A stretch of 64,000 nt of DNA from an uncultured archaeon (GTDB lineage: Archaea; Aenigmatarchaeota; Aenigmatarchaeia; CG10238-14; EX4484-224), in the NCBI GenBank assembly GCA_964524025.1, contig CAZGBT010000003.1, positions 602-64,601 of the forward strand, in the 5' to 3' direction. The position numbers and the translations under genes were made by a program. The notes under the pieces are model-generated. The model had not been told where the DNA came from and made no database searches. It saw only the letters and a list, made by a program, of their open reading frames with translations. Every line of letters begins with the position of its first letter. Positions within the stretch are counted from its first letter, which is position 1. Of this stretch, positions 41,825 through 64,000 are shown one piece after another.

Positions 41825-41835
41825 TAAATTAAATT

Positions 41836-43062: not shown

Positions 43063-43074
43063 ATAAGTGATGCT

Positions 43075-47768: not shown

Positions 47769-47956
47769 GCTTCCTTTAAAGAGTAAACATAAGCCCTGCC
47801 GACCTTATACATCTTAATCTTTTTCTGATCAACCAAAGCCTTAAGGTAACCAGCTACTAGATCTCTTCTCAATTTCAACTTTCTTGCTATTTCAGAAGTT
47901 GTCAGAAGCCTACCTTTTAACAACTGCAAAATCTTTTCTTCTAAATTCCTTTCCAC
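47765..47956 (-). CDS. Small wHTH DNA-binding protein (63 aa)
   Basis: LLTTSEIARKLKLRRDLVAGYLKALVDQKKIKMYKVGRAYVY. 4-nt overlap with the MinD-like gene. Confidence 0.6.
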   Translation of the reverse strand: MERNLEEKILQLLKGRLLTTSEIARKLKLRRDLVAGYLKALVDQKKIKMYKVGRAYVYSLKEA

Positions 47957-48052
47957 AATTCTATTTTAGCTAAAATTAAATATTTAACATTTTTGTTTAA
48001 CATTATTACAACTATTTGGTAACTATTTTGCTGCTAAATGACAGTTATTTCG

Positions 48053-48784: not shown

Positions 48785-49275
48785 AATGCTAAAAAGCCAA
48801 TTCTGCTGCCCTTCGAAATTATAACTATCTCGCCACTATAATTGCCTGGAATTGCTTGAGAAGTATTCAATATAACTTCAACGCTTTTTTTACTAAATGG
48901 GCCAAGGATAAAAGATGAAGGCTTGAAATAAAGATAACGCGAGATGGTGCCAAACGCCAAAATTTCTACCTTAACCGCTTTAGTTAAATTATTAGAAACT
49001 TCTATAAATTTTCTCGAGGAAAAAACCTTAGAAATTGGTAACTTTCCGAAATTGAAAACATATGGCTCTATAGCAATGCCTATGGTTAGATTGGTTGTAT
49101 TTACCAACTGAACATAGGCAGGATACCTACTAATATAATAAGTACAAAGGGGGAACCGCAAAACTTTGGCAGTAAAGTTAGTTATTCCAAGTGGTTTAAC
49201 TATTGGTTTTGAAAAAATTGTGGCTATTATGCTCAAAGCTAATAAGCAAAGAATAACAAATTTTTCGCCTTTCAT
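48778..49275 (-). CDS. Secreted or signal-anchored hypothetical protein (165 aa)
   Basis: N-terminal FVILCLLALSIIATIF; tightly packed in the operon. Confidence 0.5.
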   Translation of the reverse strand: MKGEKFVILCLLALSIIATIFSKPIVKPLGITNFTAKVLRFPLCTYYISRYPAYVQLVNTTNLTIGIAIEPYVFNFGKLPISKVFSSRKFIEVSNNLTKAVKVEILAFGTISRYLYFKPSSFILGPFSKKSVEVILNTSQAIPGNYSGEIVIISKGSRIGFLALC

Positions 49276-49276
49276 A

Positions 49277-50212
49277 CTATCTAATTTTGAAATAGACTAT
49301 CAATGTTAATAGGATTATTAAAAAAAGTAGAATATAAGCTAATGGAAATTTTACTTCTTTTTTCTCTTTAATTTCATAAATTTCCGGAATTTCTAAAGTC
49401 GTATTAAAAATATCTATTCCTGTGCCGTAAGAAAGGAGAGCGGTTGTTGTATAATTACCTGGTTCTACCGACTTATCTAAAGTGATGGAAATCGATTTGA
49501 TTTCTCCTGGTTTTAAAACTACCCAATTTGAAGAGAAGGTCTTGGTAGTGTTTTCGTTTGTAATTTTTAATTCTTTTATTCGAGATATTAAAGTAACTGT
49601 TCCTTCGTTCTTTGTTATTACCCTTAACTCTAATTTTTTGTCAACCCTTCTCGGAACTATATCAATAATTTTCGCCTTTCTTATCGCAACGCCTTTAACA
49701 TAAAAAATTAGTGGAAATTGGATGAATGCTCTAACACTAATTCCTATCCCAGTTTTTGTGGGAAGCTTTGTTATGGATTCTGGTCTTATGTAAATTGCAT
49801 GATAACCAGGCTCTGCATTTTCAGGAACTTTAAGAAAAAAAGAAACCTCACTCGCACTTTTAGCGATTCCCTTAAGAAAAGCAATTTTTGGAGGTAAAGG
49901 TTTAAGTTTAACAGGGTTTTCTATAAATTCAAGCCATGTAGTCGAATCCTCTTGAGAAACGTTTTCTAAAACCTTCTTGTTTATAATTGAAAAAATGGAA
50001 AGGGGGTCTTCGTACAAAGGGTTAACTTTAATCCATAGATCTGAAAAATCGCGAGAAAATACATAAAAGCTAACTAATCTTCTTTCTCCAGGTTCTACTA
50101 CACCCAAATCTAATCTAGATGGAGAAGTCCCTAAGATTTGAGCAAAAGCTCTAGGCGGGCAGATTAATAGCAAGTAGACTAACAAAATCAAGCAAAATTT
50201 CCTCATAATCAT
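49277..50212 (-). CDS. Secreted hypothetical protein with a C-terminal TM anchor
   Basis: Start taken at MIMRKFCLILLVYLLLICPPRAFAQ (alternative ATG at 50206). C-terminal FPLAYILLFLIILLTLIVYF. Confidence 0.55.
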   Translation of the reverse strand: MIMRKFCLILLVYLLLICPPRAFAQILGTSPSRLDLGVVEPGERRLVSFYVFSRDFSDLWIKVNPLYEDPLSIFSIINKKVLENVSQEDSTTWLEFIENPVKLKPLPPKIAFLKGIAKSASEVSFFLKVPENAEPGYHAIYIRPESITKLPTKTGIGISVRAFIQFPLIFYVKGVAIRKAKIIDIVPRRVDKKLELRVITKNEGTVTLISRIKELKITNENTTKTFSSNWVVLKPGEIKSISITLDKSVEPGNYTTTALLSYGTGIDIFNTTLEIPEIYEIKEKKEVKFPLAYILLFLIILLTLIVYFKIR

Positions 50213-50251
50213 AAATTTACTTGCTACTAAAGAAAAAGTAGTTAACCATAA

Positions 50252-50286
50252 TGTTAAACGAAAATTTTTATAAAAAACGTTTAACA
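50252..50286. promoter_or_regulatory. Inverted repeat in the divergent promoter between two secreted-protein transcription units
   Basis: TGTTAAACG (50252-60) and CGTTTAACA (50278-86) flank the A/T-rich, TATA-like AAAATTTTTATAAAAAA. Confidence 0.3.
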
Positions 50287-50300
50287 AATTTTAAATTAGA

Positions 50301-51248
50301 ATGAAAAGGTTTATAACCTTAGCAAGCATTGCTTTACTACTCTTTTTAGTTCCATCGATAACAGTAACTCTAAGCCAATTTAAAGAACAAGCAGATGCTA
50401 CAGATACAGCCGTCGTCAACGTCAGCATTCAAGGAGTTAATGCTGTCGACATAAATCCAATCAACTTCACTTGGGCAAATCTACCAGTTCCCCGTAACTA
50501 TACCGAAAGTGGACCGAAGGCGTTCCAAGTTGAAAACATAGGTTCTACGAATATTACACACATTTGGGCATCGACAACAAACCCAACAAGCAACCCATTC
50601 GGTACTGGAGTTGCAACTAATTACGATGCTGGTCAATTTGTAGTCCTAATAAATAGTAGCAGTAGCTCTTACGAATGGGTTCTCTATCCAAATACAGTTT
50701 TCTTTAATGAATCTGTACCTACTTATATTGTCAACAAACCATCGGGATGGAACAACGGTGGCTTATTTACGAGAATTAGAACAGCTGGCTGGGAAAGCGA
50801 CGAAGGAGAGGAATATTTCGTTTTCGTCGTAAATGGAACACAAAACTGTACGGATGGAACAGTCTATATAGGAAAAGATCCACATACAAAAACTAAAACA
50901 GGAAGTATAGACTTTTCCGATCCCGCTAATTATGTAAGCTTCGGCCTTACTTCTACTAATGACAAAAAGTGGGGATATAAAGGCCCAATAGGGGATTATG
51001 GCAGCATAAATAACTATATCGACAAGTATTACGTTCTCGTCCCCTATGACTGTAAAAACATCACACTAATAGGATGGTCAAGAAGATATGATACTACTGC
51101 TGGAATCGATATAGGTTATTACCTATTCTCAGGAACGCTAGAGCCAGGTGCTGCTCTAGACTATCTAATATCTGTAGTAATTCCATACGGAGTTGCTCAG
51201 GGTGATGTAAAAACTGGTACTCTAACGATTTACGCTACTACAGCTTAA
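50301..51248 (+). CDS. Secreted T/S/N/G-rich hypothetical protein (315 aa)
   Basis: Signal MKRFITLASIALLLFLVPSITV. Several N-x-S/T sequons. Looks more G+C-rich than its neighbours. Confidence 0.6.
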   Translation: MKRFITLASIALLLFLVPSITVTLSQFKEQADATDTAVVNVSIQGVNAVDINPINFTWANLPVPRNYTESGPKAFQVENIGSTNITHIWASTTNPTSNPFGTGVATNYDAGQFVVLINSSSSSYEWVLYPNTVFFNESVPTYIVNKPSGWNNGGLFTRIRTAGWESDEGEEYFVFVVNGTQNCTDGTVYIGKDPHTKTKTGSIDFSDPANYVSFGLTSTNDKKWGYKGPIGDYGSINNYIDKYYVLVPYDCKNITLIGWSRRYDTTAGIDIGYYLFSGTLEPGAALDYLISVVIPYGVAQGDVKTGTLTIYATTA

Positions 51249-51279
51249 AAATACTTAATCTAGTAAAATCAGGATTCAC

Positions 51280-53205
51280 CTAAACTTCTATCCATTCAAT
51301 TTTTTCTTTTTTAATTGCATCTTCTAAAGTTTTTAAAGTCTCTTCTATTTGCTCTATTTCGCTTCTTAGACTTTTCGTGAGCATAGCAGAATTCTTTATC
51401 TCGCTTATCCTATCCATTAGAGTTTCCAAGGTTTGTCTAGTCTCGCTGAACCTTCTTTCCATTTCTTGAGTTTTATTTTCTAAAGAGGAAAACTTATGCA
51501 TTAATTCTTTAAATTTGTCCTCTACCTTACTTATTTTTTCTGCCATACTCTTTACCTCTTGAAGACCATCTTCAACAACTCCCAGCCTTTCTTTTGTCTT
51601 AATTATTCCATCGTTCAAATCTTTTCCTAATCTTTCGAATGAGCTAATTTTATTTTCTAGCTCACCCATTCGAGAAGAAAAGGCTTGTATTCTCTCCTTT
51701 AAAGTTCTAAGCTCTAAAGTAAGATTTCTTATAATATCCTTGCTCAAAATCTCTTGAATTTCCTTTCTAATTTCCTCTACTTTTTCATCCAGTTTCCTTT
51801 CCATCTCTCGAGTCTTATTTGCCAGCTCTTTTGACTCATCCTCCACCTCTACAAGCCTACTTTCAACAGCTTTTAACCTCTCTTTTGCCTTCTCGATTTC
51901 ATCTTTAAGATCTTCTCTTAGCTTTACAAGCAAACTAATTTTATTCTCTACTTGAGTAGAAAAACCTTCTATTTTTCTCTTTAAACTTCCAAGTTCTAGG
52001 TCTAATTTTCCGATAGCATCCTTATCTACTAACTTTGAAATTTCCTGAATCTTTATTTCAATCTCTCTTATCTTTTCCTCAATTCTTTCCCTTGCATTCT
52101 TTTCTTCGCCTACAGAAAATTTTAACTCATCTAAAATAGAAGACAAATAGTTAAACTTTGAGTATAATTTTTCTAAATCTTCTGTTTTGGCAAATTTTTC
52201 TTTTAACATAAATATTCCTTCAAACCTTTTAGAAAGGTCAGAAACAGTCTGATTAAGAACCTCAAACTTCTCTTCCAGATATCTAATTCTTTTTTCTAGG
52301 TTTATAGGTTGGCTTTTTCTTACTATTTGTTGCAAATTAAGCAATCTATTGTTCAAATCGAGAATTAGAGAATTAAACTTGTTCAATTTGTTTTCTACAT
52401 CATCCACAGTTGTATTAATAAATTTTCTAACCTTACTCTGAAAACCTAAAAATTCTTCCCTTAAATTTTTAAGCCTAGAAAGGTTTTCTAAATTTTCTTC
52501 CATTTGTTTAAGCCTTTTCTTAAAAATTTCGTAAGAACTTTCCACCAAATTTTTTAAATTTGATAGATCTTTCTCTAGTTCTAAAATTTTCCTTATTCTC
52601 TCCTTAAACTTCTCTTCAACTTCTGCTTTAATTTCGTCTTTTAAATCTTCAGCGATTTCCATACTTTTTATCTTTAGCTTTTCCTCTACAGTCGAAGCTA
52701 GGGAAATAAAATTAGAAGAAAGTTTTTTGAATTCGGATAGTAAGTTACGATAATTTTCAGAAAGCACTTTTAAAGAAAATTTTAAATTATCAATCCTTTC
52801 CTCTATTTCGCTAATTTTCTTTTCTAAATCCTCAAATTTTGATTCTAACTTCTTCAAATTTTGCTCTGCAGAAACCCTAACTTTCTCTTCTAAATCTTTT
52901 CTTAAAATCTCAAAGCCTCTTTCTTGCTCTTTTACTTTAATCCCTAATTCATCCACTTCTCTTAAGAGTTTTGAAATAATGGAAGAAAATTTTAAAGCAG
53001 ATTTAAGCTCTTTATATAACTTAAAAAATTCCTCTTCCCTTTTTTTCTGTTCGCTCTCGATCTCGAACGTTCTCTTTTCTATTAGCTTAAACTTCTCTTT
53101 TAGCTCATCTATCTCACTTTTCAATTCTACTATTTTCTTAGCTAAAATTTCCTTTTCTTTCCTAACTTCCTTAACCCTTCTTTCCAACTCATCTAATACT
53201 TTCAT
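51280..53205 (-). CDS. All-coiled-coil protein (641 aa), third of three
   Basis: K/E/L heptad-rich throughout with no TM or enzymatic motif. Internal ~95-aa duplication (LELGSLKRKIEGFSTQVENKIS... versus LELRTLKERIQAFSSRMGELENKIS...). Confidence 0.75.
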   Translation of the reverse strand: MKVLDELERRVKEVRKEKEILAKKIVELKSEIDELKEKFKLIEKRTFEIESEQKKREEEFFKLYKELKSALKFSSIISKLLREVDELGIKVKEQERGFEILRKDLEEKVRVSAEQNLKKLESKFEDLEKKISEIEERIDNLKFSLKVLSENYRNLLSEFKKLSSNFISLASTVEEKLKIKSMEIAEDLKDEIKAEVEEKFKERIRKILELEKDLSNLKNLVESSYEIFKKRLKQMEENLENLSRLKNLREEFLGFQSKVRKFINTTVDDVENKLNKFNSLILDLNNRLLNLQQIVRKSQPINLEKRIRYLEEKFEVLNQTVSDLSKRFEGIFMLKEKFAKTEDLEKLYSKFNYLSSILDELKFSVGEEKNARERIEEKIREIEIKIQEISKLVDKDAIGKLDLELGSLKRKIEGFSTQVENKISLLVKLREDLKDEIEKAKERLKAVESRLVEVEDESKELANKTREMERKLDEKVEEIRKEIQEILSKDIIRNLTLELRTLKERIQAFSSRMGELENKISSFERLGKDLNDGIIKTKERLGVVEDGLQEVKSMAEKISKVEDKFKELMHKFSSLENKTQEMERRFSETRQTLETLMDRISEIKNSAMLTKSLRSEIEQIEETLKTLEDAIKKEKIEWIEV

Positions 53206-55094
53206 TTTAACAGACCTATGATATCAATTAGCCTTTTTTCCAGTTTATTCTTAAAACTCTCAAAATCTTTTTCCAAATTTAATAATTTACTTTCAAGTTT
53301 CATCGAAGTTGCCGAGAAATTCTGAACCGTTGTCTCAATTGATCTAATGATATCTTTTATTTCTTCTATTTCTGCAACTCTTTTTTCTATTGCTTCAATT
53401 CGTTTTCTAACTTCCTTCTCCTTATTCGATAAAACCTCTAACCTTTCAACTAGTTTCTTTTCCTTTATGTCTTTCAAATTTTCTTTTAGTCCTTTTAAAT
53501 CATCTTTAATAATAACAATTTCGTTTCTAACTTCAGAGATCTTCTCTTTCAATAATTTTTGAGATTTGATTACCTCATCTTGAATCTGTTTTACCTTCTT
53601 AACTCTATCTTGGAATGTTTCTAAATCTAAGCTTAATCTATCAACTTTTCCTACTTCCTTTTCTAAAAGTTCAAAGCGGCTGGTTAAATTTTTAGTTATT
53701 TCCTTAAGTTTGTTTATTTCGTCCCTACTGAGTTTTATCTTATCGCCTAAATTACTAATTTCATCTTTCAATTTTTTTATTTCCTCATTAATAATTGAGG
53801 TAAAATTTCCTACTTCATCCAATTTCCTACTTATAACCTCTCTATCTTTCCATATTCTTTCTACCTCTTCTTTTAATCTTTCAACCTCACTAACCAAAAA
53901 TTCAAGATTTTTAATCTTTTTAGCAAAACCTGAAGATTCTTTTTCCAAATTGCTAATTCTTTCGGATAAATTCGCTACTTTGCTTTGTAATTGATCTAAA
54001 TCTTCTATGCTTTTATCTTTTAACGACTCGAACGATTCCAATTTATGGTACAATTCTTTTTGTCTGTTTTCTAGATCTTCTGTCTTTTCGACAAGCTTGT
54101 TTATTTTAGTAGAAAAATTTGCTTCAACCTTTTCAACTTCTTCTTTTAGATTTTTTAACTCATAAGCAATTTTTTCTTCTAATTTCAACTTTGGTATAAG
54201 ATCTTCGATTTTTTTGTTAATTTTTTCCATTTCTACTTTTTTAGCAAAACTCAAGGATTCTTTAAGTAAACTATCAATTTTCTCAGACAAATCTGTTAAT
54301 TTGTCCCGAAATCTATCTACTAAGCTTAGTTCATTTTTAATTTTACTGATTTCTTCCTCTAAATTTTTCAGGCTGGCAAACTGTAAAGAAGTTCTTTCTA
54401 AATCTTTTTTTATTTTGTTTAACGATTCTAATAACGACTTCAACTTTAGTTCGAGATCTTTAATCTTACCTTCAAAAGAAACAGTCATTTCTGGTAAAGA
54501 GCTTTCTACTTTCTTTTTAAAAATTTTAAACGACTTAAGTTCCAAAGTTACAGAGCTTAGTTTTTCCGTTAACGAATTAATTGCGCGCCTTAAATTATCA
54601 AGATTTTTTAGTATATCCTCTTTTTCTTTTTTCTTTACAAACTTCTTTTCAAATCTTTCCTTTATCTCTTCTAATTCTTTAGCGAGGTTAGTAAAATTGC
54701 TCAAATTGTCCTTTAGGGTAGCGATCTCTCTATAAATTTGAGTAATTCTACCTTCCTCTTCCCTTAAAATTCTTTTAGTTTCTTCCCTTATTCTCTCTAT
54801 TTTATTTGAAAATTTTGCCTTATCCATTTCTTGTTTCTCTCTTAAGTTAATAAGCTCAAACATGAATCCTTTAACCTTATTTTCAAAAAGCGAAACACTT
54901 CTTTTGAAACCTTCGATTTCTTTAGAAATTAAAGAATAAGTTTTATCAACTCTGAGTTTTAAGTCTTCATATTTTTTCATTCTATCCTCTAATTCCACAA
55001 TTCTTTCTTCTGCAGAGTTTAGTCTACTTTTTATTGTAGCTAAACTTTCTTTCAAACTTTTTAGAACAACCGCTAAATCTTTTAACTCTTTCAT
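53202..55094 (-). CDS. All-coiled-coil protein (630 aa), second of three
   Basis: Heptad-rich K/E/L sequence. 4-nt overlaps with both neighbours. Confidence 0.75.
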   Translation of the reverse strand: MKELKDLAVVLKSLKESLATIKSRLNSAEERIVELEDRMKKYEDLKLRVDKTYSLISKEIEGFKRSVSLFENKVKGFMFELINLREKQEMDKAKFSNKIERIREETKRILREEEGRITQIYREIATLKDNLSNFTNLAKELEEIKERFEKKFVKKKEKEDILKNLDNLRRAINSLTEKLSSVTLELKSFKIFKKKVESSLPEMTVSFEGKIKDLELKLKSLLESLNKIKKDLERTSLQFASLKNLEEEISKIKNELSLVDRFRDKLTDLSEKIDSLLKESLSFAKKVEMEKINKKIEDLIPKLKLEEKIAYELKNLKEEVEKVEANFSTKINKLVEKTEDLENRQKELYHKLESFESLKDKSIEDLDQLQSKVANLSERISNLEKESSGFAKKIKNLEFLVSEVERLKEEVERIWKDREVISRKLDEVGNFTSIINEEIKKLKDEISNLGDKIKLSRDEINKLKEITKNLTSRFELLEKEVGKVDRLSLDLETFQDRVKKVKQIQDEVIKSQKLLKEKISEVRNEIVIIKDDLKGLKENLKDIKEKKLVERLEVLSNKEKEVRKRIEAIEKRVAEIEEIKDIIRSIETTVQNFSATSMKLESKLLNLEKDFESFKNKLEKRLIDIIGLLK

Positions 55095-56371
55095 TTTAAA
55101 CCTTCAACCAATTCTTTTAAACCTTTAAGCTGCGAATCTATAATTTTCTCTTGTTTTGATAGCTTTTCCTCTATTGATTGAACTAACCTTTCCAAATTAT
55201 TAGTTTTTCTTTCTAATTCTACAATGGAATTTTTAAGCTTGGAAACCAAAAAATTCAAACTTCTGATATAACTAAAGATCTTTTCTTTATCAAAACTTTC
55301 TATCCATTTGTTAATTCTTTCCAGACTATCCTTATAACCTTCCTGCTTAAATTTAAGAGAAGATAAATCGCTCTTCAAACCTGCAAATTTTTCATTTAAC
55401 CTTTCAACTTCTTTAGAAAGAATTTCTTGCGAACTTACAAGCTCAGAGATTCCTTTCCCAATTCTTACTAAATCGCTTTTAATATCCCCTATTACATCGG
55501 CATATTCTTTTTTTACACTCTCTAAGCTAGCTTTCAAGTTATCCCTAACCGATTTTATCTCTTTTTCTAGCTTCTTTATTTCGGTCAATTTTTTCTCAAA
55601 ATTTTCCAATTCTTTTTCGCAAAACTTCACTTTTTTGACGTCTCTGATTGTATTGTGTAATCTGTCAGTTATTTCGGAAATGCTTTTCTTAATCTTTCTT
55701 ATATCGTCTTTAAAGGGTTCTAACCTAGTCTCTACTTCTTTCTTTATATTCTTTGGGAGTTCTCTTTCTGCTATAGAAAAAAGATCCGAAATTCTATCTA
55801 AAGTTTCTTTTCCAACTTTATTTTTTAAATCCAAAATTTCCTTTTTTAAAACTGGAATCTCTGAAATCATTTTTATAGAAGTTTCTAAGGCAGAGATTCT
55901 ATTGGAAATCTCTTCTTTTACGAGCTTTTCTAAATTTTTTAGGTTTTTTTCTAATTGTAAAACTTTCATGGCTTCTTCTTCTGGAGTTAATTCTGGTAAT
56001 TCGCCAAAAATTCCTCTAGTTTTTTTCCTTTCCTTTAAAGCTTCCCTTATTTCGTTAAGTTGAGTCTCTAAGGAAGTTATTTTTTCTACGTGCTTGAGCT
56101 TTTCGTCTATCTCCTCTATCTTTTTGGAAAAGGTCTGCTTAAGAATTGAAAGCTCTTCTTCCAAGCTTTTAGTCTTTATCTTTCCGATTCTTCTCTCTAC
56201 GTTCTTTAAGTTTTCAAAGATAGTCTTCAAGCTGTCTTCTATTCTTTTATTTATTTCATCAAATTTCGGCTTTATTTTTTCCAAAACTTTCTTTTCAACC
56301 TCCTCTTCCTTGATTTTACTGGATTTAGAAGCTACTTCTTCTATAAGCTGGGCTAAAACTTCTTCTTCCAT
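55091..56371 (-). CDS. All-coiled-coil protein (426 aa), first of three
   Basis: Heptad-rich K/E/L sequence with no signal peptide or TM helix. Confidence 0.75.
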   Translation of the reverse strand: MEEEVLAQLIEEVASKSSKIKEEEVEKKVLEKIKPKFDEINKRIEDSLKTIFENLKNVERRIGKIKTKSLEEELSILKQTFSKKIEEIDEKLKHVEKITSLETQLNEIREALKERKKTRGIFGELPELTPEEEAMKVLQLEKNLKNLEKLVKEEISNRISALETSIKMISEIPVLKKEILDLKNKVGKETLDRISDLFSIAERELPKNIKKEVETRLEPFKDDIRKIKKSISEITDRLHNTIRDVKKVKFCEKELENFEKKLTEIKKLEKEIKSVRDNLKASLESVKKEYADVIGDIKSDLVRIGKGISELVSSQEILSKEVERLNEKFAGLKSDLSSLKFKQEGYKDSLERINKWIESFDKEKIFSYIRSLNFLVSKLKNSIVELERKTNNLERLVQSIEEKLSKQEKIIDSQLKGLKELVEGLK

Positions 56372-56541
56372 TATTTATACCTCTCCATTAACCTAAAACC
56401 AAGTTTTTTCCATTCTTTTATCCTTTTTCTTAAAATTTTCATTCTATGCTTAACAAAAAAGACTTCTGTTTCAGTTCTTTTTCTTCTAAAATGGAAAAAA
56501 AGGATTAAAAAAACTATCAAAAGTAAAGGAATTAAATACAT
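56371..56541 (-). CDS. Small single-pass membrane protein (56 aa); below the ORF-track cutoff
   Basis: Manual translation gives MYLIPLLLIVFLILFFHFRRKRTETEVFFVKHRMKILRKRIKEWKKLGFRLMERYK. Its TAA overlaps the ATG of the first coiled-coil gene (TAATG). Confidence 0.4.
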   Translation of the reverse strand: MYLIPLLLIVFLILFFHFRRKRTETEVFFVKHRMKILRKRIKEWKKLGFRLMERYK

Positions 56542-56564
56542 AATTTAATTTTTTTGTTCCAGAA

Positions 56565-57335
56565 TTATATTTTCCTTCTCAACCTAAGCTTTTCCAGCAG
56601 TCTTCTCCAAAAGCTTTTCTCAACATATGGTTCTCCTATTAAGTAACTAGCTAGTTTGATTAATTCTCTACAGGAATCGCATTTTGAATTATAGGTTATC
56701 AAAGGTAATTTTAATGCTAAACTTTTTAACAGATTTTCATCAAACTTTATTTTTGCAATTACAGGCAAGCCGACTAATTCCTCTATTTCTCTTGCTTTTA
56801 ATTCGTGTCTACTTCCTCTTACCATATTCAATACAATACCTATTGGTTTAACGCCAATCTCTCTTACTATTTCTTGGGCCCTTACTATATCCATAACAGC
56901 AGGTATGTAAGGTGTTGTTACATAAAGTATTTCGTTAGCAGCTCTAATAGCACTTAAAGCCTCTCTTCCAAAGCCAGGCGCTGCATCTAACAAGACAATT
57001 TCTGTTTTTTCTTCTAGCTGCCTTAAAATTTCTGGAAGTTTTACTAAATCAACCCCTTTAAGATCATCAACAGAAAGAGAAGCTGGAATAACTTTTAATC
57101 CTGTAAAATGAACAAAGATAGAATCTTCAACTGGATATTCTCCTCTTAAAACTTTATTTAAAGTAACAGGCGAATAATAGATACCTAAATGAAGGGCTAA
57201 ATGTGAAGTTGTTACGTTGCAATCTATAATTGTTACATCCCTCTTAAAAACTTCAGCTAATATAGCTCCTAGATTAGTTACTATAGTTGTTTTGCCAACC
57301 CCACCTTTTCCAGATGCAACAGCAATTACCCTCAT
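56565..57335 (-). CDS. MinD/ParA-family ATPase
   Basis: Deviant Walker A SGKGGVGKTT and VLLDAAPG. 256 aa. Confidence 0.85.
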   Translation of the reverse strand: MRVIAVASGKGGVGKTTIVTNLGAILAEVFKRDVTIIDCNVTTSHLALHLGIYYSPVTLNKVLRGEYPVEDSIFVHFTGLKVIPASLSVDDLKGVDLVKLPEILRQLEEKTEIVLLDAAPGFGREALSAIRAANEILYVTTPYIPAVMDIVRAQEIVREIGVKPIGIVLNMVRGSRHELKAREIEELVGLPVIAKIKFDENLLKSLALKLPLITYNSKCDSCRELIKLASYLIGEPYVEKSFWRRLLEKLRLRRKI

Positions 57336-57354
57336 TTTTCAATAGTAAATTGGC

Positions 57355-57807
57355 TTATACGTTTTTAAAATGGTTGGTTATTGTGTTTATCAGATTTTCT
57401 ACAACAAAAATTTCTGTAAAGAAAATTGAAGGAAAAGACAAAACAAAGAATAGATGGGAAAACAAACCGCCAAAAATTATTTGAAAGTCAGCAGATGAAA
57501 GCGAGAAAGATAAACCAAGAATTATTAAACCCAAATTTTTAAGTGCATCCTCTTCTGACAAAAGGAGTAGTATAGAAGCTAGTATCGTAAAAAGAAAACC
57601 TGATAAATAGATCAGGGGATTTAATTTTGTGCAGGCCACTTCTGTATAGGGGAAGTTGCTCGAAGAATCGTAAATAACTGCTTTTGCTTTACATCCAAAT
57701 GCGCTAGCTATTAAAGCATGGCCTATTTCGTGTAGGCTTAAAGCTAGGATTATAGCTATTAGGTTTAGGAAAAAATAATTAACTAAAAATTTTGCAATTA
57801 GCTTCAT
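57355..57807 (-). CDS. Small polytopic membrane protein with an HExxH motif (putative intramembrane zinc metalloprotease-like)
   Basis: About 4 hydrophobic helices. LSLHEIGHALI lies at the end of the first helix. Confidence 0.55.
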   Translation of the reverse strand: MKLIAKFLVNYFFLNLIAIILALSLHEIGHALIASAFGCKAKAVIYDSSSNFPYTEVACTKLNPLIYLSGFLFTILASILLLLSEEDALKNLGLIILGLSFSLSSADFQIIFGGLFSHLFFVLSFPSIFFTEIFVVENLINTITNHFKNV

Positions 57808-57845
57808 GAATTACTTAAAGGTAATTACTTTTAAAAACGTTACTA

Positions 57846-60800
57846 CTAAACTGTTAATTCTTCTAATCTTTTCCTAAGCTTCCTCCTAAGCTCCTCGTAA
57901 GCTCTAGCAGATATCAAACCTTCTCTATATTCCCTTTCTAATACCCTAAGAACCCTTTCAAGCCTCTCTCTTTCTTTCCTTACCTCTTCAGGCATTCTAG
58001 CAACTCTTATTTTTCTAAGCTCCTCTATCCTTGGTCTTATTTTTTCTTCAAACTCAATAAGTTTATGCTTCCACTTTACTGCGAAGAATACTACAAAGAT
58101 TAAAACAACAGCTATTGAAATGAGCAAAATTATTAGCCAGAGTGGGGGAGCTGGTACAGTAATTACTTTTATCTTTGGTGCTATAGAAAGCAAATAGAAA
58201 CCTCTATCGATCAAATTGGAAATTACTATCAAAGTAGCTGCACATTCGTCGAATTTTTTTCTCTTCAAATAATCCTTAGCAACCTTTATTTGAGTTTTAA
58301 TTTCTTCTATAATACTTCTAACAGCAGAAACATCATAGCCAAGTTTCTCTTTATAATCAGTTTGGTTTATCAATTCTTTTAATCTTTTTTCTAACTTAGC
58401 AATTTCATATGCTAGAAGTTCTTCTCTACTTTTGAATAAGTTAAATTTAAAACTTTTTTTAGTTGTTGTTTCGTTAGAAATGACAAGAAGCGACGCATTA
58501 TAAAACTTAGAATAGTTTACTTTTGGCGGTGATATTTTTAACCTTATTTCAATAGATTTTCCTGGTTCTAGCAGCTCTATTTTAGAAGGAATAAAAGTAA
58601 ACCAATTGGCTGGTGCGCCAAGTATAGCTAGTTCAATTTTATGCAAAACAACAGAACCCGTATTATTAAGGTAAAATATTATGTAGCGGGTCCATCCTCC
58701 TTCTATGCTAATTTCGCTAGGAAATCTCCAAATTATTAATCTAGCCACAGGCGGTACAGCAGGAGGTGCGGGAGGCGGTGCCACTGGTACAGGAACTTTT
58801 GTAACTACTCTAAAACTTTCCCATTTTAAAATGGGTGGCTTAACGGGATCGTAGGTTAATTTTACCTTCAAATAATAAGTACCTAAAGGTTGGTCTGAAA
58901 ATATGTAAACACTCCTAAGCAAAGTTTTATTCGACAAAGCTGGCATGTAGATTGCTTCAGAAGCATAGTACCAAGTATCGTTAGCACCCTCAACCCAATA
59001 TTCTAAGTCTACATCTTGGGAAACTTCTCCCTGATTTTCGATGTAAATTTCAAAAGGTAGAGTTTCACCAGGGCTTACTTCCTTTTCTAACAGTTTTATC
59101 CTAACGTCATAAGGGCCTCCTGCTGAAACTCTAAACATTGCAACACGTTGGGTAAATTTACCATCTTGATAAGCAGTAACGTAAGCGGTATAGGCTCCTG
59201 TAGGCGTATCTGAAGGCATGGCGTATTTGTAAATATAGTATCCTGTTGCTACCCTATCCATTTCATCGATAGTAGCAAAAAGATATAGATTGCCAGCAGG
59301 ATCCTTAACGGTTAGATTAAGCTGTTCAGGATCTACTGGCAATCCAGAAATATTATAAACTATTATTGAAAACTTCATAACGTTGTTTGGATACCAAACT
59401 ACTGTAGTTTCTACATCAACGTATAAGCTTTCTAATGAAACTTTTGCAGTCCCACTAACTTTAAAAACATAAAGATCCTCGCTGTTCGATGAATGGTTGA
59501 CTATATTATCCCAATAAGAGCTAAAAGCTATTAAAGTATAATTTCCGAGTGGAGCATCGCTTGTTATCCTAAAACTTGGTAGCGGATTGATATATCCTTC
59601 TTCGTTAGTTGTAAAATTAGATTCGTAAGTTAAGTTTTGGAGTGAATCATAAATTTTTATAGTAACGCTTACATTTCCTAATGGATTGTCCGTATAGTCA
59701 AAAACTCTGTAGAAAAACCTACCATCGCTTCCTGGTGGATATTCTTCTTGATAAGTAGAAAGGAATACAACCAACTTTGCATAAACGTAAAACTTAGATT
59801 CTGACTGGGTTGTTATTCCAACTTTATCTTTAGAATAAACTATAATTTCATAAATCCCTCTTAAGCTTGTATCCCCTTTGGTACCTGGATATTGGATGTA
59901 CCATAAAGAATGTTTATCATCATATTGCTCAACAAGCGTCATATTAAGACTATCGATAGTACCATTAGGTCTTGTTACGTTTATTCTTACCCATTCAATT
60001 CCGTAGCCAGACCTATCGGTTATGTTAGCATAGATATCGATATGACCCGTTTGCTCAATTTTTCCCGGAAAGACGGAGACGTTAATCAAAGGTCCTACAT
60101 AAGGATTTATTACCGTTGTTAAAAGCATAAAATCAGGAGATGCGTCAATATCTAAAGCGTCCACTTTAAAGGTTGAATTATAAAACTTAAGCTCGGCCCC
60201 TGTAACATTATAATAAACGCCGAAAACATAAGATTCTTGTGGGTTTAAGGTAAAATTCGTAACGTTTACCCAAGTTTTATTACCTTCTCTTGGTGTTATA
60301 GTAAAGTTTATAGGTAGATTTCCAGTATTGTTTACTCTAACTACGCACATTAAACCTTCAGGAACAGTAAAATTGGCTTCACAATGAGTTGGATGCATAG
60401 TCCAGGTTTTGTTAGTAAGAACTGTTACGTTAAGATATAGCCAATCGTAACCATTATTGGAGGTTGTTACATTCAATATTCCGCTATAATTTCCTGGCGG
60501 ATAGCCAGCTGGAATTGTAATGTTTATTTGAATAGATTGGACCTTTCCTCCTTCTAGGCTTGTTATATTTGGTATGAACTCGAACTGGAAATCTTCTAGG
60601 CCTATTACTGTAAATTTAATTCCTTCTATTGGGTCGTTACCAGTAGAATTTAGAGTAAAATTGCCTAAGATAGATTCTTTATTCTGTTCAACCTGATTGT
60701 AAACATAGTTTTCAGGAATATAGAAAGAGGGGTTGGAAGTTATAGTAACATTTACGCTTCTAGTTAAACTCTTAGTTCCCTCTCCTATATCCTCCCAGTA

Positions 60801-63602
60801 GTACGTTAGATTAACTAAGTAAAAACCCGATCTTGTTAAGGCTGGTATCGTTAGGTTAGCAGAAAATGTACAACTATTATTTATTGAGATGTTTCCGCAG
60901 AATTTGTAAGTTAAATTGGCTTGCCAATTAGCTGGTAAATAGAGTTTAAAATAGGAATTGAAAGCAGTCACGTTTCCTATATTTGTCACATTTCCAAATA
61001 GCTCGAACCAGTCTGATTGATAAGCTGTTATTGTGGTTGAAGTATAATTTGTTGGGGTAAGGTTAAACTCTACTTTGGCACCAGAAACTGTTACGTTAAG
61101 ATATAGCCAATCGTAACCATTATTGGAGGTTGTTACATTCAATATTCCGCTATAATTTCCTGGCGGATAGCCAGCTGGAATTGTAATGTTTATTTGAATA
61201 GATTGGACCTTTCCTCCTTCTAGGCTTGTTATATTTGGTATGAACTCGAACTGGAAATCTTCTAGGCCTATTACTGTAAATTTAATTCCTTCTATTGGGT
61301 CGTTACCAGTAGAATTTAGAGTAAAATTGCCTAAGATAGATTCTCTTCCTCGACCGACTATATTATACACATGGGTCTCTGGTATGTGGAAAGAGGGATT
61401 AGAAGTTACAATAACGGTAAAATTGGAAGACGTTGAATTTGTTGAGTTATCTGTGTTCCTCCATTTAGCTATTACAGTAACATTATAAGAACCAGATCTG
61501 GTTAAAGTTGGAATCGTTATGTTAAATGCCTTAATGCAATAACCGCTTATCGGTATTAATCCGCATTCTTCAAAAGTAGAATTTGCTTGCCAATTATTTG
61601 GCAAAATTATCGTTACATTAACATCGTAAGCAGTTCCGTTCCATGTATTATAAACTTTTACTTTGAAATCGAACCAGTCTGATTGATAAGCTGTTATTGT
61701 GGTTGAAGTATAATTTGTTGGGGTAAGGTTAATAGCTAAATAGGTTACGTAATCGTCTGCAGAAAAAGTATCTTCTCCATCCCCCCAGTTACCGTCTCTC
61801 GAAGCATTACAGGTTAAAATATAAAGACCTGGCTCTGACGGTGCCTTAAAGGAATAAAGATAAGTCCCATTATTGTAATCTGTAACGTTCCCATTAGCAT
61901 TTGTTTCATCGAAATAACAAACTATAGTACAATTAGGAAGAAGTGTGTCATTTCTGTAGTTCCTCACCTCTACACTTGCATTTATAGTCCTATTTATGAG
62001 ACCATACTCGTTCAAGACTTTTACAAAAACGTTTAGCAAATTAGTGACGTTAAAAGATGTTGTATTTTTTCCTAAAAAGGTTCCAGATGAATCATAAGCT
62101 CTCAAAGTTATATTCCAAATTCCTGTAGAATCGCTTTCATTTATTACAAAAGAACCAGTAAATAACTTGTCTCCAGCCACTTGATCAACGCCTGTCCCGT
62201 TATCATAAAGCAATATCCAAAAATCATCAGATTTATCTGGAGTTCCTCTATCTATGGTTGCATTAAGATAAGCTGTTAAATTGTAAGGATCATATGTTAT
62301 GTTAGCAAAAATTACTACCTCTTCCTTCCTGTTATATACAGGATATTCAGTATAAGGAATAAAACTTACTGATAAGTATTCTGGATTAGATAGGATTTTC
62401 TTAAATGGTTGTCTGAAACCTTCTAAAATTTTATTCAAAAATTCGCTAACGGCGTCACCACCGCCGAAAGTCGAAAAGTAAACGCATGCTTTTTCAGAAA
62501 TTTGCGTTATATAAATTGTATTCAAATGAATTCCTGTTCTTCCAGCCTCTGGAGAGTCTAAAGCATAGAAATTAGTAGTACCAGTTTCATTAAGATTTAT
62601 AACGCCCAAAACCTCTCCTCCAAAACCTCTTGAATAAGCGTAAGAGTATGGGTCTGAAGAATCGTAATATCTAATTATAACTTCTTCGCTTTTGAAAGTT
62701 CTATTAACGTCAAAAGCTAAAGCCCCTGCTTTAGTCGAATTTCTAGTAGCACTTCCGTTTAGCAATTGTTCAATTAATATAAAACTACCATAAGCTTGGG
62801 GTCCGACTTTCTCGTAGAAATAATAAATTTTCTTTCCAGTTAATTCTCCACTTTTCTGATAAGGATTTCCGAGGATTACTTCGTCACCATAAATTTCTAT
62901 TTTTATTCTTACGGGCCCGCTAGTAATAATAAAAGATGATGCATTTATCGTAAAGTTGTAAGTTCCATTCGAGTATTCTATGTATTCAGCAGTTCTTTCA
63001 TTAGAAGGTATGTCCTTAAAAACTGTACTAAGTCCATAATCCTGAACTTGATATATTCCTGTTGTATAATCTCCTCTTGATAAATCTATGAAATACATAA
63101 AGTAAGATGTATTAACTCTAATTTCATCACCTACTACCGCATAAGAAAGTTGGGTTGAATAATTTGCTTGCTCCTTCTGACCATTCTCTAAAATATCAAA
63201 ATAAACATAAAAGATTCTTTTCTGATTTAAAGGAGTCGTTCCGTTTGCTATGAAGATTAGAGTTCCATAAGCATTAGATGTAGCGTTAAAATTATCTGCT
63301 TTTTCAAATTGATAAGGAATTTCGTAAAGAAACTCGCCAGAAGTTATGTTGTATTCTATAACTCTAATAGAATTTTCGTCAAAAGTACCGCTCATACCGA
63401 GTTGCTCTATAAGTTTTGTAAAGTTTATATCTGTTTCTATAGGCCAATTAGTTCTTTCCACCCCTGTTGAATTAACCTCTATTCTTACTCTAAAATACCA
63501 GCTTGTATTCCACCATTCATAAGTTACTCCACTCACAGGAATAGCTAAAAATGTTAGAACTATAGGAATTAAAAATATTGCTATTTCTTTTTTAATTTCC
63601 AT
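57846..63602 (-). CDS. Giant envelope protein (1918 aa) with a signal peptide, many beta-sandwich repeats dense in N-x-S/T, a Pro-rich linker, a C-terminal TM helix and a 76-aa cytoplasmic R/E coiled-coil tail
   Basis: N-terminal IAIFLIPIVLTFLAIPVSG. Linker PVPVAPPPAPPAVPPV. TM helix LWLIILLISIAVVLIFVVFFAV, then KWKHKLIEFEEKIRPRIEELRK...LRKRLEELTV. Confidence 0.8.
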   Translation of the reverse strand: MEIKKEIAIFLIPIVLTFLAIPVSGVTYEWWNTSWYFRVRIEVNSTGVERTNWPIETDINFTKLIEQLGMSGTFDENSIRVIEYNITSGEFLYEIPYQFEKADNFNATSNAYGTLIFIANGTTPLNQKRIFYVYFDILENGQKEQANYSTQLSYAVVGDEIRVNTSYFMYFIDLSRGDYTTGIYQVQDYGLSTVFKDIPSNERTAEYIEYSNGTYNFTINASSFIITSGPVRIKIEIYGDEVILGNPYQKSGELTGKKIYYFYEKVGPQAYGSFILIEQLLNGSATRNSTKAGALAFDVNRTFKSEEVIIRYYDSSDPYSYAYSRGFGGEVLGVINLNETGTTNFYALDSPEAGRTGIHLNTIYITQISEKACVYFSTFGGGDAVSEFLNKILEGFRQPFKKILSNPEYLSVSFIPYTEYPVYNRKEEVVIFANITYDPYNLTAYLNATIDRGTPDKSDDFWILLYDNGTGVDQVAGDKLFTGSFVINESDSTGIWNITLRAYDSSGTFLGKNTTSFNVTNLLNVFVKVLNEYGLINRTINASVEVRNYRNDTLLPNCTIVCYFDETNANGNVTDYNNGTYLYSFKAPSEPGLYILTCNASRDGNWGDGEDTFSADDYVTYLAINLTPTNYTSTTITAYQSDWFDFKVKVYNTWNGTAYDVNVTIILPNNWQANSTFEECGLIPISGYCIKAFNITIPTLTRSGSYNVTVIAKWRNTDNSTNSTSSNFTVIVTSNPSFHIPETHVYNIVGRGRESILGNFTLNSTGNDPIEGIKFTVIGLEDFQFEFIPNITSLEGGKVQSIQINITIPAGYPPGNYSGILNVTTSNNGYDWLYLNVTVSGAKVEFNLTPTNYTSTTITAYQSDWFELFGNVTNIGNVTAFNSYFKLYLPANWQANLTYKFCGNISINNSCTFSANLTIPALTRSGFYLVNLTYYWEDIGEGTKSLTRSVNVTITSNPSFYIPENYVYNQVEQNKESILGNFTLNSTGNDPIEGIKFTVIGLEDFQFEFIPNITSLEGGKVQSIQINITIPAGYPPGNYSGILNVTTSNNGYDWLYLNVTVLTNKTWTMHPTHCEANFTVPEGLMCVVRVNNTGNLPINFTITPREGNKTWVNVTNFTLNPQESYVFGVYYNVTGAELKFYNSTFKVDALDIDASPDFMLLTTVINPYVGPLINVSVFPGKIEQTGHIDIYANITDRSGYGIEWVRINVTRPNGTIDSLNMTLVEQYDDKHSLWYIQYPGTKGDTSLRGIYEIIVYSKDKVGITTQSESKFYVYAKLVVFLSTYQEEYPPGSDGRFFYRVFDYTDNPLGNVSVTIKIYDSLQNLTYESNFTTNEEGYINPLPSFRITSDAPLGNYTLIAFSSYWDNIVNHSSNSEDLYVFKVSGTAKVSLESLYVDVETTVVWYPNNVMKFSIIVYNISGLPVDPEQLNLTVKDPAGNLYLFATIDEMDRVATGYYIYKYAMPSDTPTGAYTAYVTAYQDGKFTQRVAMFRVSAGGPYDVRIKLLEKEVSPGETLPFEIYIENQGEVSQDVDLEYWVEGANDTWYYASEAIYMPALSNKTLLRSVYIFSDQPLGTYYLKVKLTYDPVKPPILKWESFRVVTKVPVPVAPPPAPPAVPPVARLIIWRFPSEISIEGGWTRYIIFYLNNTGSVVLHKIELAILGAPANWFTFIPSKIELLEPGKSIEIRLKISPPKVNYSKFYNASLLVISNETTTKKSFKFNLFKSREELLAYEIAKLEKRLKELINQTDYKEKLGYDVSAVRSIIEEIKTQIKVAKDYLKRKKFDECAATLIVISNLIDRGFYLLSIAPKIKVITVPAPPLWLIILLISIAVVLIFVVFFAVKWKHKLIEFEEKIRPRIEELRKIRVARMPEEVRKERERLERVLRVLEREYREGLISARAYEELRRKLRKRLEELTV
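60421..61732. repeat. Tandem 666-nt (222-aa) duplication inside the giant envelope gene
   Basis: 60421-60678 matches 61087-61344 (258 nt, no mismatch seen by eye). 61003-61066 matches 61669-61732. The stretch between these blocks is strongly diverged. Confidence 0.85.
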
Positions 63603-63796
63603 ACTATCTTCCTCCCAATACCTCGTTTCGTTTTCTCGACGCTTTCTTCTACTAGGTCTAAAGCTTTTAGCTTATAGCAATAAAACCTTGCTGTTGCCCA
63701 CGAAACTTTAAGCTTCTTCGCTATTTGGTAAGTAGAAAGAGGCGATGCTCTAAGAAATTCGATTATTTTTCTTTCGATTCCAGAAATTTTTGACAC
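63581..63796 (-). CDS. Small wHTH DNA-binding protein (71 aa), first gene of the envelope operon
   Basis: IIEFLRASPLSTYQIAKKLKVSWATARFYCYKLKALDLVE. 22-nt overlap with the giant gene. Confidence 0.6.
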   Translation of the reverse strand: MSKISGIERKIIEFLRASPLSTYQIAKKLKVSWATARFYCYKLKALDLVEESVEKTKRGIGRKIVWKLKKK

Positions 63797-63870
63797 ATTT
63801 TATATTAATATATCAATAGATTAATACATTGATATAGTGAGATATTGATATCTCAATATATTAATACAAA
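63797..63870. promoter_or_regulatory. Divergent promoter/operator candidate with repeated boxes
   Basis: Three ATTAATA(T/C)A boxes at 63804, 63820 and 63860. An 8-bp inverted repeat TGAGATAT-TG-ATATCTCA at 63838-63855. TATA-like TTTATATTAATA. Confidence 0.3.
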
Positions 63871-64000
63871 AGCCGTTATAGATATAGGAGCTACTTACAT
63901 AAGATTCGGCAAAGGGGAAGAGAATGGGACTTTTTTACTCAAAAAGAAAGTTAAAACAGAGAAAAGAAGCGTAAGAAATTTTTTAGAACAACTAAAGAAA
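63845..64000 (+). CDS. Partial ASKHA/ROK-like sugar kinase N-terminus (continues beyond the window)
   Basis: KAVIDIGATYIRFGKG resembles the phosphate-1 motif of ROK/glucokinase-type kinases. The only candidate start is a TTG at 63845, and the 3' end is truncated. Confidence 0.35.
   Translation, partial: MISQYINTKAVIDIGATYIRFGKGEENGTFLLKKKVKTEKRSVRNFLEQLKK

Follow-up and report, generated by a model that had tools for sequence, protein, structure and literature searches.

In a 64,000-nt stretch of DNA from an uncultured archaeon of the Aenigmatarchaeota (GenBank assembly GCA_964524025.1, contig CAZGBT010000003.1, positions 602 to 64,601; the whole stretch is called the window here), we detected an eight-gene operon encoding a giant surface glycoprotein of 1918 aa, an archaeal MinD-family ATPase and three cytoplasmic coiled-coil proteins (CC426, CC630 and CC641), together with a small winged helix-turn-helix protein (wHTH71), a 150-aa membrane protein with an HExxH motif and a 56-aa membrane protein (tm56). 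We tentatively propose, with slightly less than an even chance of being right, that these products form a MinD-anchored sub-membrane scaffold that would hold or position the giant glycoprotein. Beyond the window, the cluster may represent a phylum-wide gene set of the Aenigmatarchaeota (DPANN) coupling a specialised MinD-family ATPase to the cell envelope, a reading that we place just short of the halfway mark. Next to MinD, the most constant gene is that of a surface protein anchored in the membrane and ending in a conserved cytoplasmic part; second in frequency come a small coiled-coil protein with a membrane anchor and a set of three long coiled-coil proteins. A sub-membrane scaffold organizing the surface protein is the simplest reading of this constant company.

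The conservation of the arrangement was assessed on one genome per GTDB species. A single-sequence MinD search of the genome contigs found no loci, so that a trimmed alignment was needed; a profile search with the trimmed MinD alignment gave 80 further loci, in which open reading frames (ORFs) were called and compared. The comparison covers 82 related loci, designated by L-numbers, around orthologous MinD genes with 45-66% identity. Nearly all of the 80 GTDB loci belong to Aenigmatarchaeota metagenome-assembled genomes (MAGs), many of them from hot springs, and the closest MinD proteins are named Candidatus Aenigmatarchaeota. Together with the archaeal RNase P RNA and tRNAs of the window, this assigns the DNA to a low-GC DPANN archaeon of that phylum. 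The order of giant, MinD and coiled-coil genes, which a first-pass annotation had described from the letters of the window, recurs across the Aenigmatarchaeota at 49-66% MinD identity. A lack of neighbourhood conservation, named in that annotation as grounds for rejecting its reading, is thus clearly not what the relatives show. In L002, which has the closest MinD (66% identical), the order is shared across about 19 kb, with orthologues of the giant (54% identity), of the 150-aa membrane protein (42%), of CC426 (36%, E 1e-70) and of the other coiled-coil proteins (about 26%). It continues after the coiled-coil genes with orthologues of p315, p336, p165, p243, wHTH63, ParA236 and p741, the genes of an adjacent module described below.

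Several arrangements were distinguished among the relatives. About 17 loci (type A) start with a charged protein of 476-740 aa, followed by the giant (~2000 aa), a 220-aa cytosolic or Peptidase_M50B-like (M50B-like) protein and MinD; after MinD come a ~90-aa coiled-coil protein with an N-terminal transmembrane (TM) segment and two or three charged helical proteins. In type A', counted in about 7 loci, the helical triplet and the pair of MinD and the 220-aa gene are divergently transcribed. Type B (about 36 loci) starts with a second MinD paralogue, two anchored proteins and a surface protein of ~415-430 aa, continues with an 85-aa protein, sometimes an M50B-like protein, and MinD, and has no coiled-coil proteins. 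The mini surface proteins of type B, which adjoin MinD, contain the same module of CARDB-like domain, helical stalk and TM helix as the giant, and end in charged, conserved tails of 14-18 aa with the pattern +RPKLL. Full-length orthologues of the giant (33-37% identity, about 2000 aa) lie next to MinD in L041, L049, L054, L056, L058, L062, L063, L065 and L069.

A giant-like protein is encoded at most three genes upstream of MinD in 37 of the 82 loci, while at least two charged helical proteins occur within four genes of MinD in 21 of them and at least one in 37. Charged helical proteins account for 71 of the 244 large proteins within four genes of MinD, vs 17 of the 221 at greater distance (odds ratio 4.9, p 1.6e-9), and a tail-bearing giant near MinD is accompanied by at least two charged helical proteins in 13 of 14 loci vs 7 of 27 (p 5e-5), both statistics being calculated without regard to shared ancestry. 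In a neighbour-joining tree of MinD, carriers of coiled-coil proteins are found in both major branches, and the window and L002 fall inside an otherwise coiled-coil-free branch.

The giant combines a signal peptide with an array of beta-sandwiches and ends in a helical juxtamembrane stalk, a single TM helix and a cytoplasmic tail. Pfam detects NPCBM_assoc in three stretches (74 bits) and MG2 in two (55 bits), and the protein contains 92 N-X-S/T sequons, vs 24 +/- 4 in shuffled sequence. Translation, sequon count and heptad pattern bear out the earlier description of a signal peptide, dense sequons, a TM helix and a 76-aa R/E-rich coiled-coil tail. An exact look-up of the 1918-aa sequence returned no database record, and a protein homologue search with its C-terminal 298 aa gave no matches. 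In a tandem duplication within the ectodomain (Table 1), 259 nt of one copy (60420-60678) recur with 100% identity in the other (61086-61344). Either a ~222-aa ectodomain unit was duplicated very recently, or the assembly produced an artefact.

The tail carries a motif with the consensus L..LE+E[YF]+EG[IL]IS...Y.EL++.N.E+L, which was found in 25 of 25 orthologues of the giant and is far better conserved than their ectodomain (33-37% identical). Comparison of the sequences thus supports the tail being a conserved functional element, and a conserved cytoplasmic tail implies a cytoplasmic partner. In 12 loci, the charged cytoplasmic protein (476-740 aa) encoded directly upstream of the giant itself carries two to four copies of the motif (L049:1509-3119 and L041:867-2729, with equivalents in L054, L056, L058, L062, L063, L065, L069, L075, L084 and L086). 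Alignment of the tail motif with the motif of the upstream protein by hhalign gave a probability of 97.9%, the second set having been picked by a pattern derived from the first. A hidden Markov model (HMM) of the combined motif, searched against all proteins of 85 loci and all six-frame ORFs of the window, matches only the tails of the giants and the upstream protein family, with E-values jumping from 6e-8 to 0.39; within the window, its sole match is the tail of the giant. The first-pass annotation had suggested that the tail could contact the three coiled-coil proteins. The tail has indeed proved to be a conserved element, but a contact with these three proteins is not borne out by the motif, which they lack.

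Matches of the tail to Pfam are all sub-threshold, namely GvpG at E 0.004-0.3 and SHOCT_2 at E 0.034, and both assignments were rejected. The GvpG matches are all below the gathering threshold, and the best SHOCT_2 match reaches 14.7 bits vs 24 in one of seven peptides, the strongly conserved Glu of SHOCT not being evident. Like SHOCT (PF09851, PF20612), the tail motif is short and C-terminal, is made of two helices and has a conserved Gly followed by two hydrophobic residues, S/T and an aromatic residue (PMC3581485). SHOCT itself is a short C-terminal two-helix domain of unknown function, for which the one reported oligomerization experiment was negative (PMC3581485).

The ATPase reaches the curated cutoff of the archaeal MinD family TIGR01969 (204.9 bits vs a cutoff of 201.75), and its closest solved structures are archaeal MinDs, i.e., MinD-1 of A. 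fulgidus (1HYQ, E 2e-44), 1G3Q and 1ION. Residues 8-16 form the deviant Walker A motif SGKGGVGKT with the signature lysine, aligning to the P-loop of 1HYQ and 1G3Q. Residue-level alignments give IIDCNV as its switch I, vs VDADI in 1HYQ, VDGDL in 1G3Q and LDADL in FleN; the canonical D-x-D is thus absent from the MinD of the window. The D-C-N variant is found in 118 of the 120 closest MinD homologues, and the Asn is invariant in the trimmed MinD alignment. The second Asp of switch I (D40 in E. coli MinD, D44 in Soj) is required for ATP hydrolysis, not for dimerization. Because of the Asn in switch I, and by analogy with such mutants of other family members, we propose a reduced hydrolysis; the D-C-N orthogroup may thus be a slow or partner-dependent ATPase. 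At its C-terminus, the protein has an amphipathic helix (aa 241-256, nt 56568-56615), a predicted membrane-targeting helix, with the largest helical hydrophobic moment of the protein at residues 241-251 (SFWRRLLEKLR) and a pattern conserved in the orthologues.

Archaella, chemosensory arrays and CetZ1 of Haloferax volcanii are reported to be positioned by MinD4 and MinD2 (bioRxiv 10.1101/2020.04.03.021790; PMC11588486; PMC11621097), and the Haloferax MinDs are described as positioning envelope machinery and not the divisome (PMC11588486; bioRxiv 10.1101/2020.04.03.021790), which agrees with the scaffold reading. The MinD of the window resembles MinD4 and MinD2 in being an archaeal MinD-family ATPase that has the deviant Walker A and, at its C-terminus, a helix for membrane targeting, a service to the envelope being what we propose here. 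It differs from them in belonging to a different orthogroup, in its D-C-N switch I and in coming from a DPANN archaeon instead of a haloarchaeon. Besides, its gene shares an operon with those of a giant surface protein and of three coiled-coil proteins, and no such partners have been described for MinD4 or MinD2.

The three proteins encoded at the end of the operon are coiled coils over most of their length: 76-98% of their residues (98% in CC630 and 93% in CC641) lie in 28-residue windows with strong a/d heptad contrast, vs 6-8% in shuffles, and proline plus glycine amount to 2-4%. A single-sequence AlphaFold2 (AF2) model of CC426 is nearly all helical, with one helix of ~150 residues (pLDDT about 64). 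A Foldseek search of this model against the PDB gave no match at E <= 0.001, and PDB sequence searches with CC426 and CC630 returned chance coiled-coil matches only. CC426 is the best conserved of the three, with only 7 relatives among 1.84 billion representative proteins in an exhaustive phmmer search; a prefiltered homologue search recovered only CC426 itself, coiled-coil words saturating the prefilter. In other loci, an iterated CC426 profile consistently recovers the charged protein that comes first after MinD and the small TM protein. CC630 has by synteny a 449-aa counterpart in L002, and its family matches are all compositional and below cutoffs. CC641 contains an internal repeat, shares 26% identity over 529 aa with a 706-aa protein of L002, and its profile matches proteins at equivalent positions in L049 and L058. 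Coiled-coil profiles can drift, and placement by such profiles is a weaker line of evidence. Intermediate-filament, crescentin, DivIVA, EzrA and ZapB families were rejected for the coiled-coil proteins, none giving a profile match above its cutoff (Filament 16.6 bits vs 40, EzrA 26-30 vs 39.6, ZapB 15.4 vs 31.5, and a DivIVA-related model at E 0.017).

The 56-aa protein reported by the first-pass annotation is present and keeps its position, but its sequence is not conserved. Its TM helix is N-terminal, its cytoplasmic segment is strongly basic, and its slot is occupied in 16 loci by a ~90-aa protein with an N-terminal TM segment and then a coiled coil. We regard tm56 as a candidate membrane adaptor, whose basic segment could conceivably act as an ATPase-interacting peptide. 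The 150-aa protein, called a protease in the same annotation, does contain the HExxH motif, but its similarity to M50B is sub-threshold, other lineages replace it, and it appears to be accessory. It is a small polytopic protein with HEIGH in its first membrane helix, scoring 20.0 bits vs 26 for Peptidase_M50B (PF13398) and 17.4 vs 27.2 for PF02163. The gene is present in 11 loci, and HExxGH and two Asp are invariant in 10 orthologues. A single-sequence AF2 model of low confidence (pLDDT 64) predicts a beta-hairpin after the first TM helix and places an invariant Asp in a later membrane segment; Foldseek found no match of this model in the PDB at E <= 0.001. The HExxH in the first TM helix recalls site-2 proteases and the Peptidase M50 and M50B families, and the Asp of the later membrane segment may or may not correspond to the third zinc ligand that these enzymes have in a later TM helix; from them the protein differs by its length of only 150 aa, its sub-threshold Pfam score and the lack of a fold-search match; judged by these sequence features, it is a possible intramembrane metalloprotease. 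Two further well-conserved families without a Pfam match were observed in the slot of the M50B-like gene upstream of MinD, one of 220 aa (L049:9235-9897; 26 loci) and one of 85 aa with the pattern 'MGLFGP..FWLH' (L017:9650-9937; 36 loci). The three largely interchange, the 85-aa and M50B-like proteins occurring together in L004, L009-L011 and L019. That the slot is filled by these unrelated proteins in other lineages points to an accessory component.

Based on these features, we propose a theoretical scheme for the operon. The giant would be exported, N-glycosylated and held by its one TM helix, leaving the 76-aa helical tail in the cytoplasm. MinD would bind ATP, dimerize via the deviant Walker A lysine and sit on the inner face of the membrane via its C-terminal amphipathic helix; bearing Asn in switch I and being probably a slow or partner-dependent hydrolyser, it might serve as a long-lived membrane landmark and not as a fast oscillator. 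A basic anchored protein of the tm56 type and the three coiled-coil proteins would form with MinD the sub-membrane scaffold, on which the tails of the giant would dock, either directly or via an adaptor sharing the motif. Such docking would cluster or position the surface protein, or tie it mechanically to the cell interior. Expression of the operon would be regulated by wHTH71, and the M50B-like protein would be a lineage-specific accessory that possibly processes a membrane component.

Several observations weigh against this scheme. By the motif HMM and a motif search on the window, CC426, CC630 and CC641 lack the tail motif, and the motif-bearing upstream protein of other lineages is absent from the window. 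The parts are also separable: in L043, L059, L060, L061, L067 and L077 the coiled-coil triplet and MinD occur with the 220-aa protein but have no full-length tail-bearing giant beside them, several of them carrying only a giant-like protein of ~410-460 aa with a short tail, and MinD occurs without any coiled-coil proteins in the about 36 loci with the 85-aa family. All but a few loci come from one phylum, which the statistics given above treat as if its members shared no ancestry. The coiled-coil proteins appear to diverge fast, their orthology beyond L002 resting on iterated profiles that can drift, and no sequence homologue of tm56 was found. The reduced hydrolysis would follow by analogy from mutants of other family members. 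Gene content, conserved order, tail motif, D-C-N switch I, amphipathic C-terminus and the coiled-coil character of the three proteins are observed; every protein-protein contact, the lowered hydrolysis and the function in the cell are inferred.

Known systems give partial precedents. In DivIVA-MinJ-MinD of Bacillus subtilis and in HubP with ParA1, ParC and FlhG of Vibrio, a coiled-coil or TM landmark recruits a MinD/ParA ATPase to a site on the envelope, and BcsQ of E. coli, a ParA/MinD-family protein, is a stable structural subunit of the cellulose secretion complex. These systems are all bacterial, and none of them has a 1918-aa glycoprotein with a conserved cytoplasmic tail motif. The match to a DivIVA-related model is sub-cutoff, that to BcsQ (PF06564) is over the Pfam cutoff yet far weaker than that to MinD, and no match to MinJ or HubP is among those listed. 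The gene architecture of a ParA/MinD ATPase with coiled-coil proteins, of the PomXYZ or DivIVA-MinJ-MinD type, is present and conserved. In PomXYZ of Myxococcus xanthus, the coiled-coil partners form a large scaffold, and one partner contributes a short basic peptide that activates the ATPase (PMC7993993, PMC13170346). As in PomXYZ, a ParA/MinD ATPase is encoded here beside coiled-coil proteins, a likeness at the gene level. Unlike the proposed membrane-bound MinD of the operon, PomZ binds the nucleoid and positions FtsZ; no sequence similarity to PomX or PomY is found, and the operon has, besides its three coiled-coil proteins, both a membrane anchor and a surface protein.

The gene order might instead reflect neighbourhood by descent, with the giant as an ordinary surface or S-layer-like glycoprotein and MinD and the coiled coils as a separate cell-organization module. 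Such a history, which we consider unlikely, would fit the six loci with triplet and MinD but no full tail-bearing giant, the about 36 loci with MinD but no coiled coils, the position of the giant in L004 several genes away from MinD, and the lack of the motif in the coiled-coil proteins of the window. It fits less well that the order survives at MinD identities of about 50% and on both sides of the MinD tree, and that giant-less loci encode, directly before MinD, a mini surface protein ending in the C-terminal module of the giant. The partner implied by the conserved tail, the association of tail-bearing giants by MinD with nearby coiled-coil proteins (p 5e-5) and the overlap of start and stop codons, which argues for co-translation, also speak for a functional unit. 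A role in division-site or nucleoid positioning of the Min, DivIVA or PomXYZ type, in which MinD and the coiled coils would place FtsZ or segregate DNA and the giant would be incidental, appears improbable to us. The operon lacks FtsZ, SepF and a DNA-binding partner, the consistent neighbour of MinD is a surface protein, and the matches to EzrA, DivIVA, ZapB and Filament are all below cutoffs, although TIGR01969 is named 'cell division ATPase MinD', weak compositional matches of EzrA type exist and coiled-coil partners are also known from DivIVA-MinJ-MinD. The pairing of ParA/MinD ATPases with coiled-coil partners in PomXYZ is a further point in its favour (PMC7993993, PMC13170346). On the other hand, no Haloferax MinD is reported to act in division (PMC11588486), and the archaeal divisome, that of Haloferax included, is positioned by the unrelated Dip system, which is widespread in FtsZ-using archaea (PMC13228585).

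The coiled-coil proteins also give matches to SMC, Rad50, LmuB, JetC and DruC models, which would make them SMC/Rad50 or defence components (Lamassu LmuB, Wadjet JetC), and the pairs of wHTH and ParA genes resemble the partition cassettes of mobile elements; we judge this whole group of explanations to be extremely unlikely. The matches to SMC, Rad50 and SbcC cover the arms only and reach 32-68 bits vs cutoffs of 567-1087 (at best 68 vs 567 for SMC and 53 vs 700 for Rad50), and there is no P-loop head, hinge or zinc hook. Because ATPase head domains are lacking, the SMC and defence reading is effectively refuted, in keeping with the first-pass view of these proteins as purely coiled-coil. The PADLOC matches to LmuB and JetC likewise cover coiled-coil arms only, and MinD and the other operon genes have no PADLOC matches. 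As for a mobile element, no member of the MinD orthogroup turned up in 2.9 million viral contigs, and the cluster lies among housekeeping genes and, in relatives, beside ribosomal protein genes. The sugar-metabolism genes and RNase P RNA elsewhere in the window form an ordinary chromosomal context, which argues against a mobile island.

If the proposed scaffold reading holds, the cluster would stay within the known range of ParA/MinD positioning and scaffolding systems and add three new elements: a MinD orthogroup with D-C-N, the motif of the tail, and a giant surface protein coupled to the ATPase. No description of such a cluster was found in the literature searched, as the first-pass annotation had supposed, and an Aenigmarchaeota genomics paper does not mention MinD. 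To our knowledge, archaeal MinDs are abundant and their cargoes are known only in one haloarchaeon. The cluster offers a concrete, conserved and testable gene set linking a positioning ATPase, coiled coils and a giant glycoprotein by way of the conserved tail motif. Its D-C-N orthogroup may be a naturally 'locked' MinD, and the short new motif common to a membrane-protein tail and a cytoplasmic partner gives an experimental handle. Should the link prove real, prokaryotes would have a further, new means of tying surface proteins to an internal scaffold.

A bolder reading is that the cluster is the core of a cell-contact or attachment structure of the Aenigmatarchaeota, in which a static, hydrolysis-impaired MinD landmark would carry a plaque of MinD, adaptor and coiled coils with docked tails of the giant adhesin; we take this to be a long shot. 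The docking through a new SHOCT/GvpG-like tail motif, as a prokaryotic analogue of the focal adhesion, is just as much of a long shot. A role of the operon in host attachment is speculative, and so are the 'polar or attachment organelle' and 'episymbiont host contact' of the first-pass annotation. DPANN archaea rely on contact with the host surface, and we know of no component of the contact structure that has been identified. Which molecules make up the attachment organelles of DPANN archaea is, according to the literature, not known (PMC11104419), and the cluster would provide the first candidate parts list for one if this reading were true.

The eight ORFs run in one direction on the minus strand (Table 1), and the ORF list agrees to the base with the coordinates and junctions first reported for a co-directional, packed eight-gene operon. 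The wHTH71 and giant genes overlap by 22 nt; gaps of 38, 19 and 23 nt separate the giant from the 150-aa gene, the latter from MinD, and MinD from tm56. The junction of tm56 and CC426 is a 1-nt TAATG overlap, and those of CC426 with CC630 and of CC630 with CC641 are 4-nt ATGA overlaps. Identical DNA was found in two independent assemblies of hot-spring samples (Logan SRR7051321; ENA ERZ27248328). At the 3' end, a convergent plus-strand gene ends at 51248, 31 nt from the last stop codon, and the 5' boundary is fixed by a divergent plus-strand ORF beyond 63880.

Table 1. Features of the operon and of the adjacent module (positions in the window)
Feature	Position	Strand	Description and basis
wHTH71, small winged helix-turn-helix protein	63581..63796	-	71 aa, GTG start, operon gene 1; Pfam
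Giant type-I surface glycoprotein	57846..63602	-	1918 aa; translation, Pfam
Internal tandem duplication in giant ectodomain	60420..61732	-	666 nt (222 aa); repeat search
TM helix of giant	58077..58142	-	aa 1821-1842, LWLIILLISIAVVLIFVVFFAV; translation, hydropathy scan
Cytoplasmic tail of giant	57849..58076	-	76 aa, K1843-V1918, R/E-rich, heptad-patterned
Conserved tail motif	about 57858-57968	-	~35 aa, within the tail of the giant
M50B-like membrane HExxH protein	57355..57807	-	150 aa; sub-threshold Pfam
Archaeal MinD-family ATPase	56565..57335	-	256 aa; TIGR01969
tm56, N-terminal TM helix protein	56371..56541	-	56 aa; translation
CC426, coiled-coil cytoplasmic protein 1	55091..56371	-	426 aa; heptads, AF2
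CC630, coiled-coil cytoplasmic protein 2	53202..55094	-	630 aa; heptads
CC641, coiled-coil cytoplasmic protein 3	51280..53205	-	641 aa, final operon gene; heptads
Divergent promoter/operator region	63797..63880	.	TTGATAT/ATATCAA repeats, inverted repeats
Adjacent syntenic module	44845..51248	.	6.4 kb; translations, Pfam, NCBIfam
wHTH63	47765-47956		Adjacent module
ParA236	47058-47768		Adjacent module; canonical D-G-D switch I
p741	44845-47070		Signal peptide, Ig/CarboxypepD_reg domains, C-terminal TM

The first gene of the operon encodes a probable transcription regulator. In Pfam, wHTH71 reaches 21.4 bits for FaeA (cutoff 20.7), stays under the cutoff for HTH_11 (22.2 vs 25) and is also just under that for HTH_5; in L075, the gene immediately preceding the giant encodes an orthologue with 50% identity. 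An AT-rich stretch of about 85 nt lies between wHTH71 and the plus-strand ORF, with palindromes such as TGAGATAT-CA-ATATCTCA, and the repeats of this region are a candidate operator for wHTH71. The plus-strand ORF at ~63880-64000 leaves the window; its translation ('IDIGATYIRFG...') starts '...IDIGATYIRFGKGEENG', a sequence resembling the phosphate-1 motif found in sugar kinases of the ROK or actin fold. A scan for sigma-70 promoters and intrinsic terminators gave counts at or below the shuffle expectation and says little about an archaeon. The GC content of the window is ~33% and drops to 28% at 52000-56000, where the GC skew (-0.32 to -0.43) and the AT skew (about -0.23 to -0.25) are both extreme because the coding strand of the coiled-coil genes is purine-rich (E/K). 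Long plus-strand ORFs within the coiled-coil genes (e.g., 54214-54735) were rejected as genes, being S/F/L-rich shadows of the purine-rich strand.

The adjacent module echoes the operon in combining a wHTH gene with genes for a MinD/ParA ATPase and for a surface protein that is anchored. Its secreted or anchored proteins p336, p165 and p243 and the secreted p315, encoded convergently on the plus strand, have no family match. Orthologues of the module occur in order in L002, L004 and 11-19 further Aenigmatarchaeota loci, depending on the gene. The stretch 44845-63796 as a whole is syntenic with relatives, the conserved unit being larger than the eight-gene operon.

Elsewhere in the window, a group of glycogen and sugar metabolism genes is found at 39162-44241 (GDE_C debranching enzyme, GPI, GH57, GT4 glycosyltransferase), an archaeal RNase P RNA at 4810-5061, and archaeal-type tRNAs are also present. 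A 98-nt tRNA detected by Rfam at 18922-19019 on the minus strand, and uncalled by ARAGORN, is probably an intron-containing archaeal tRNA.

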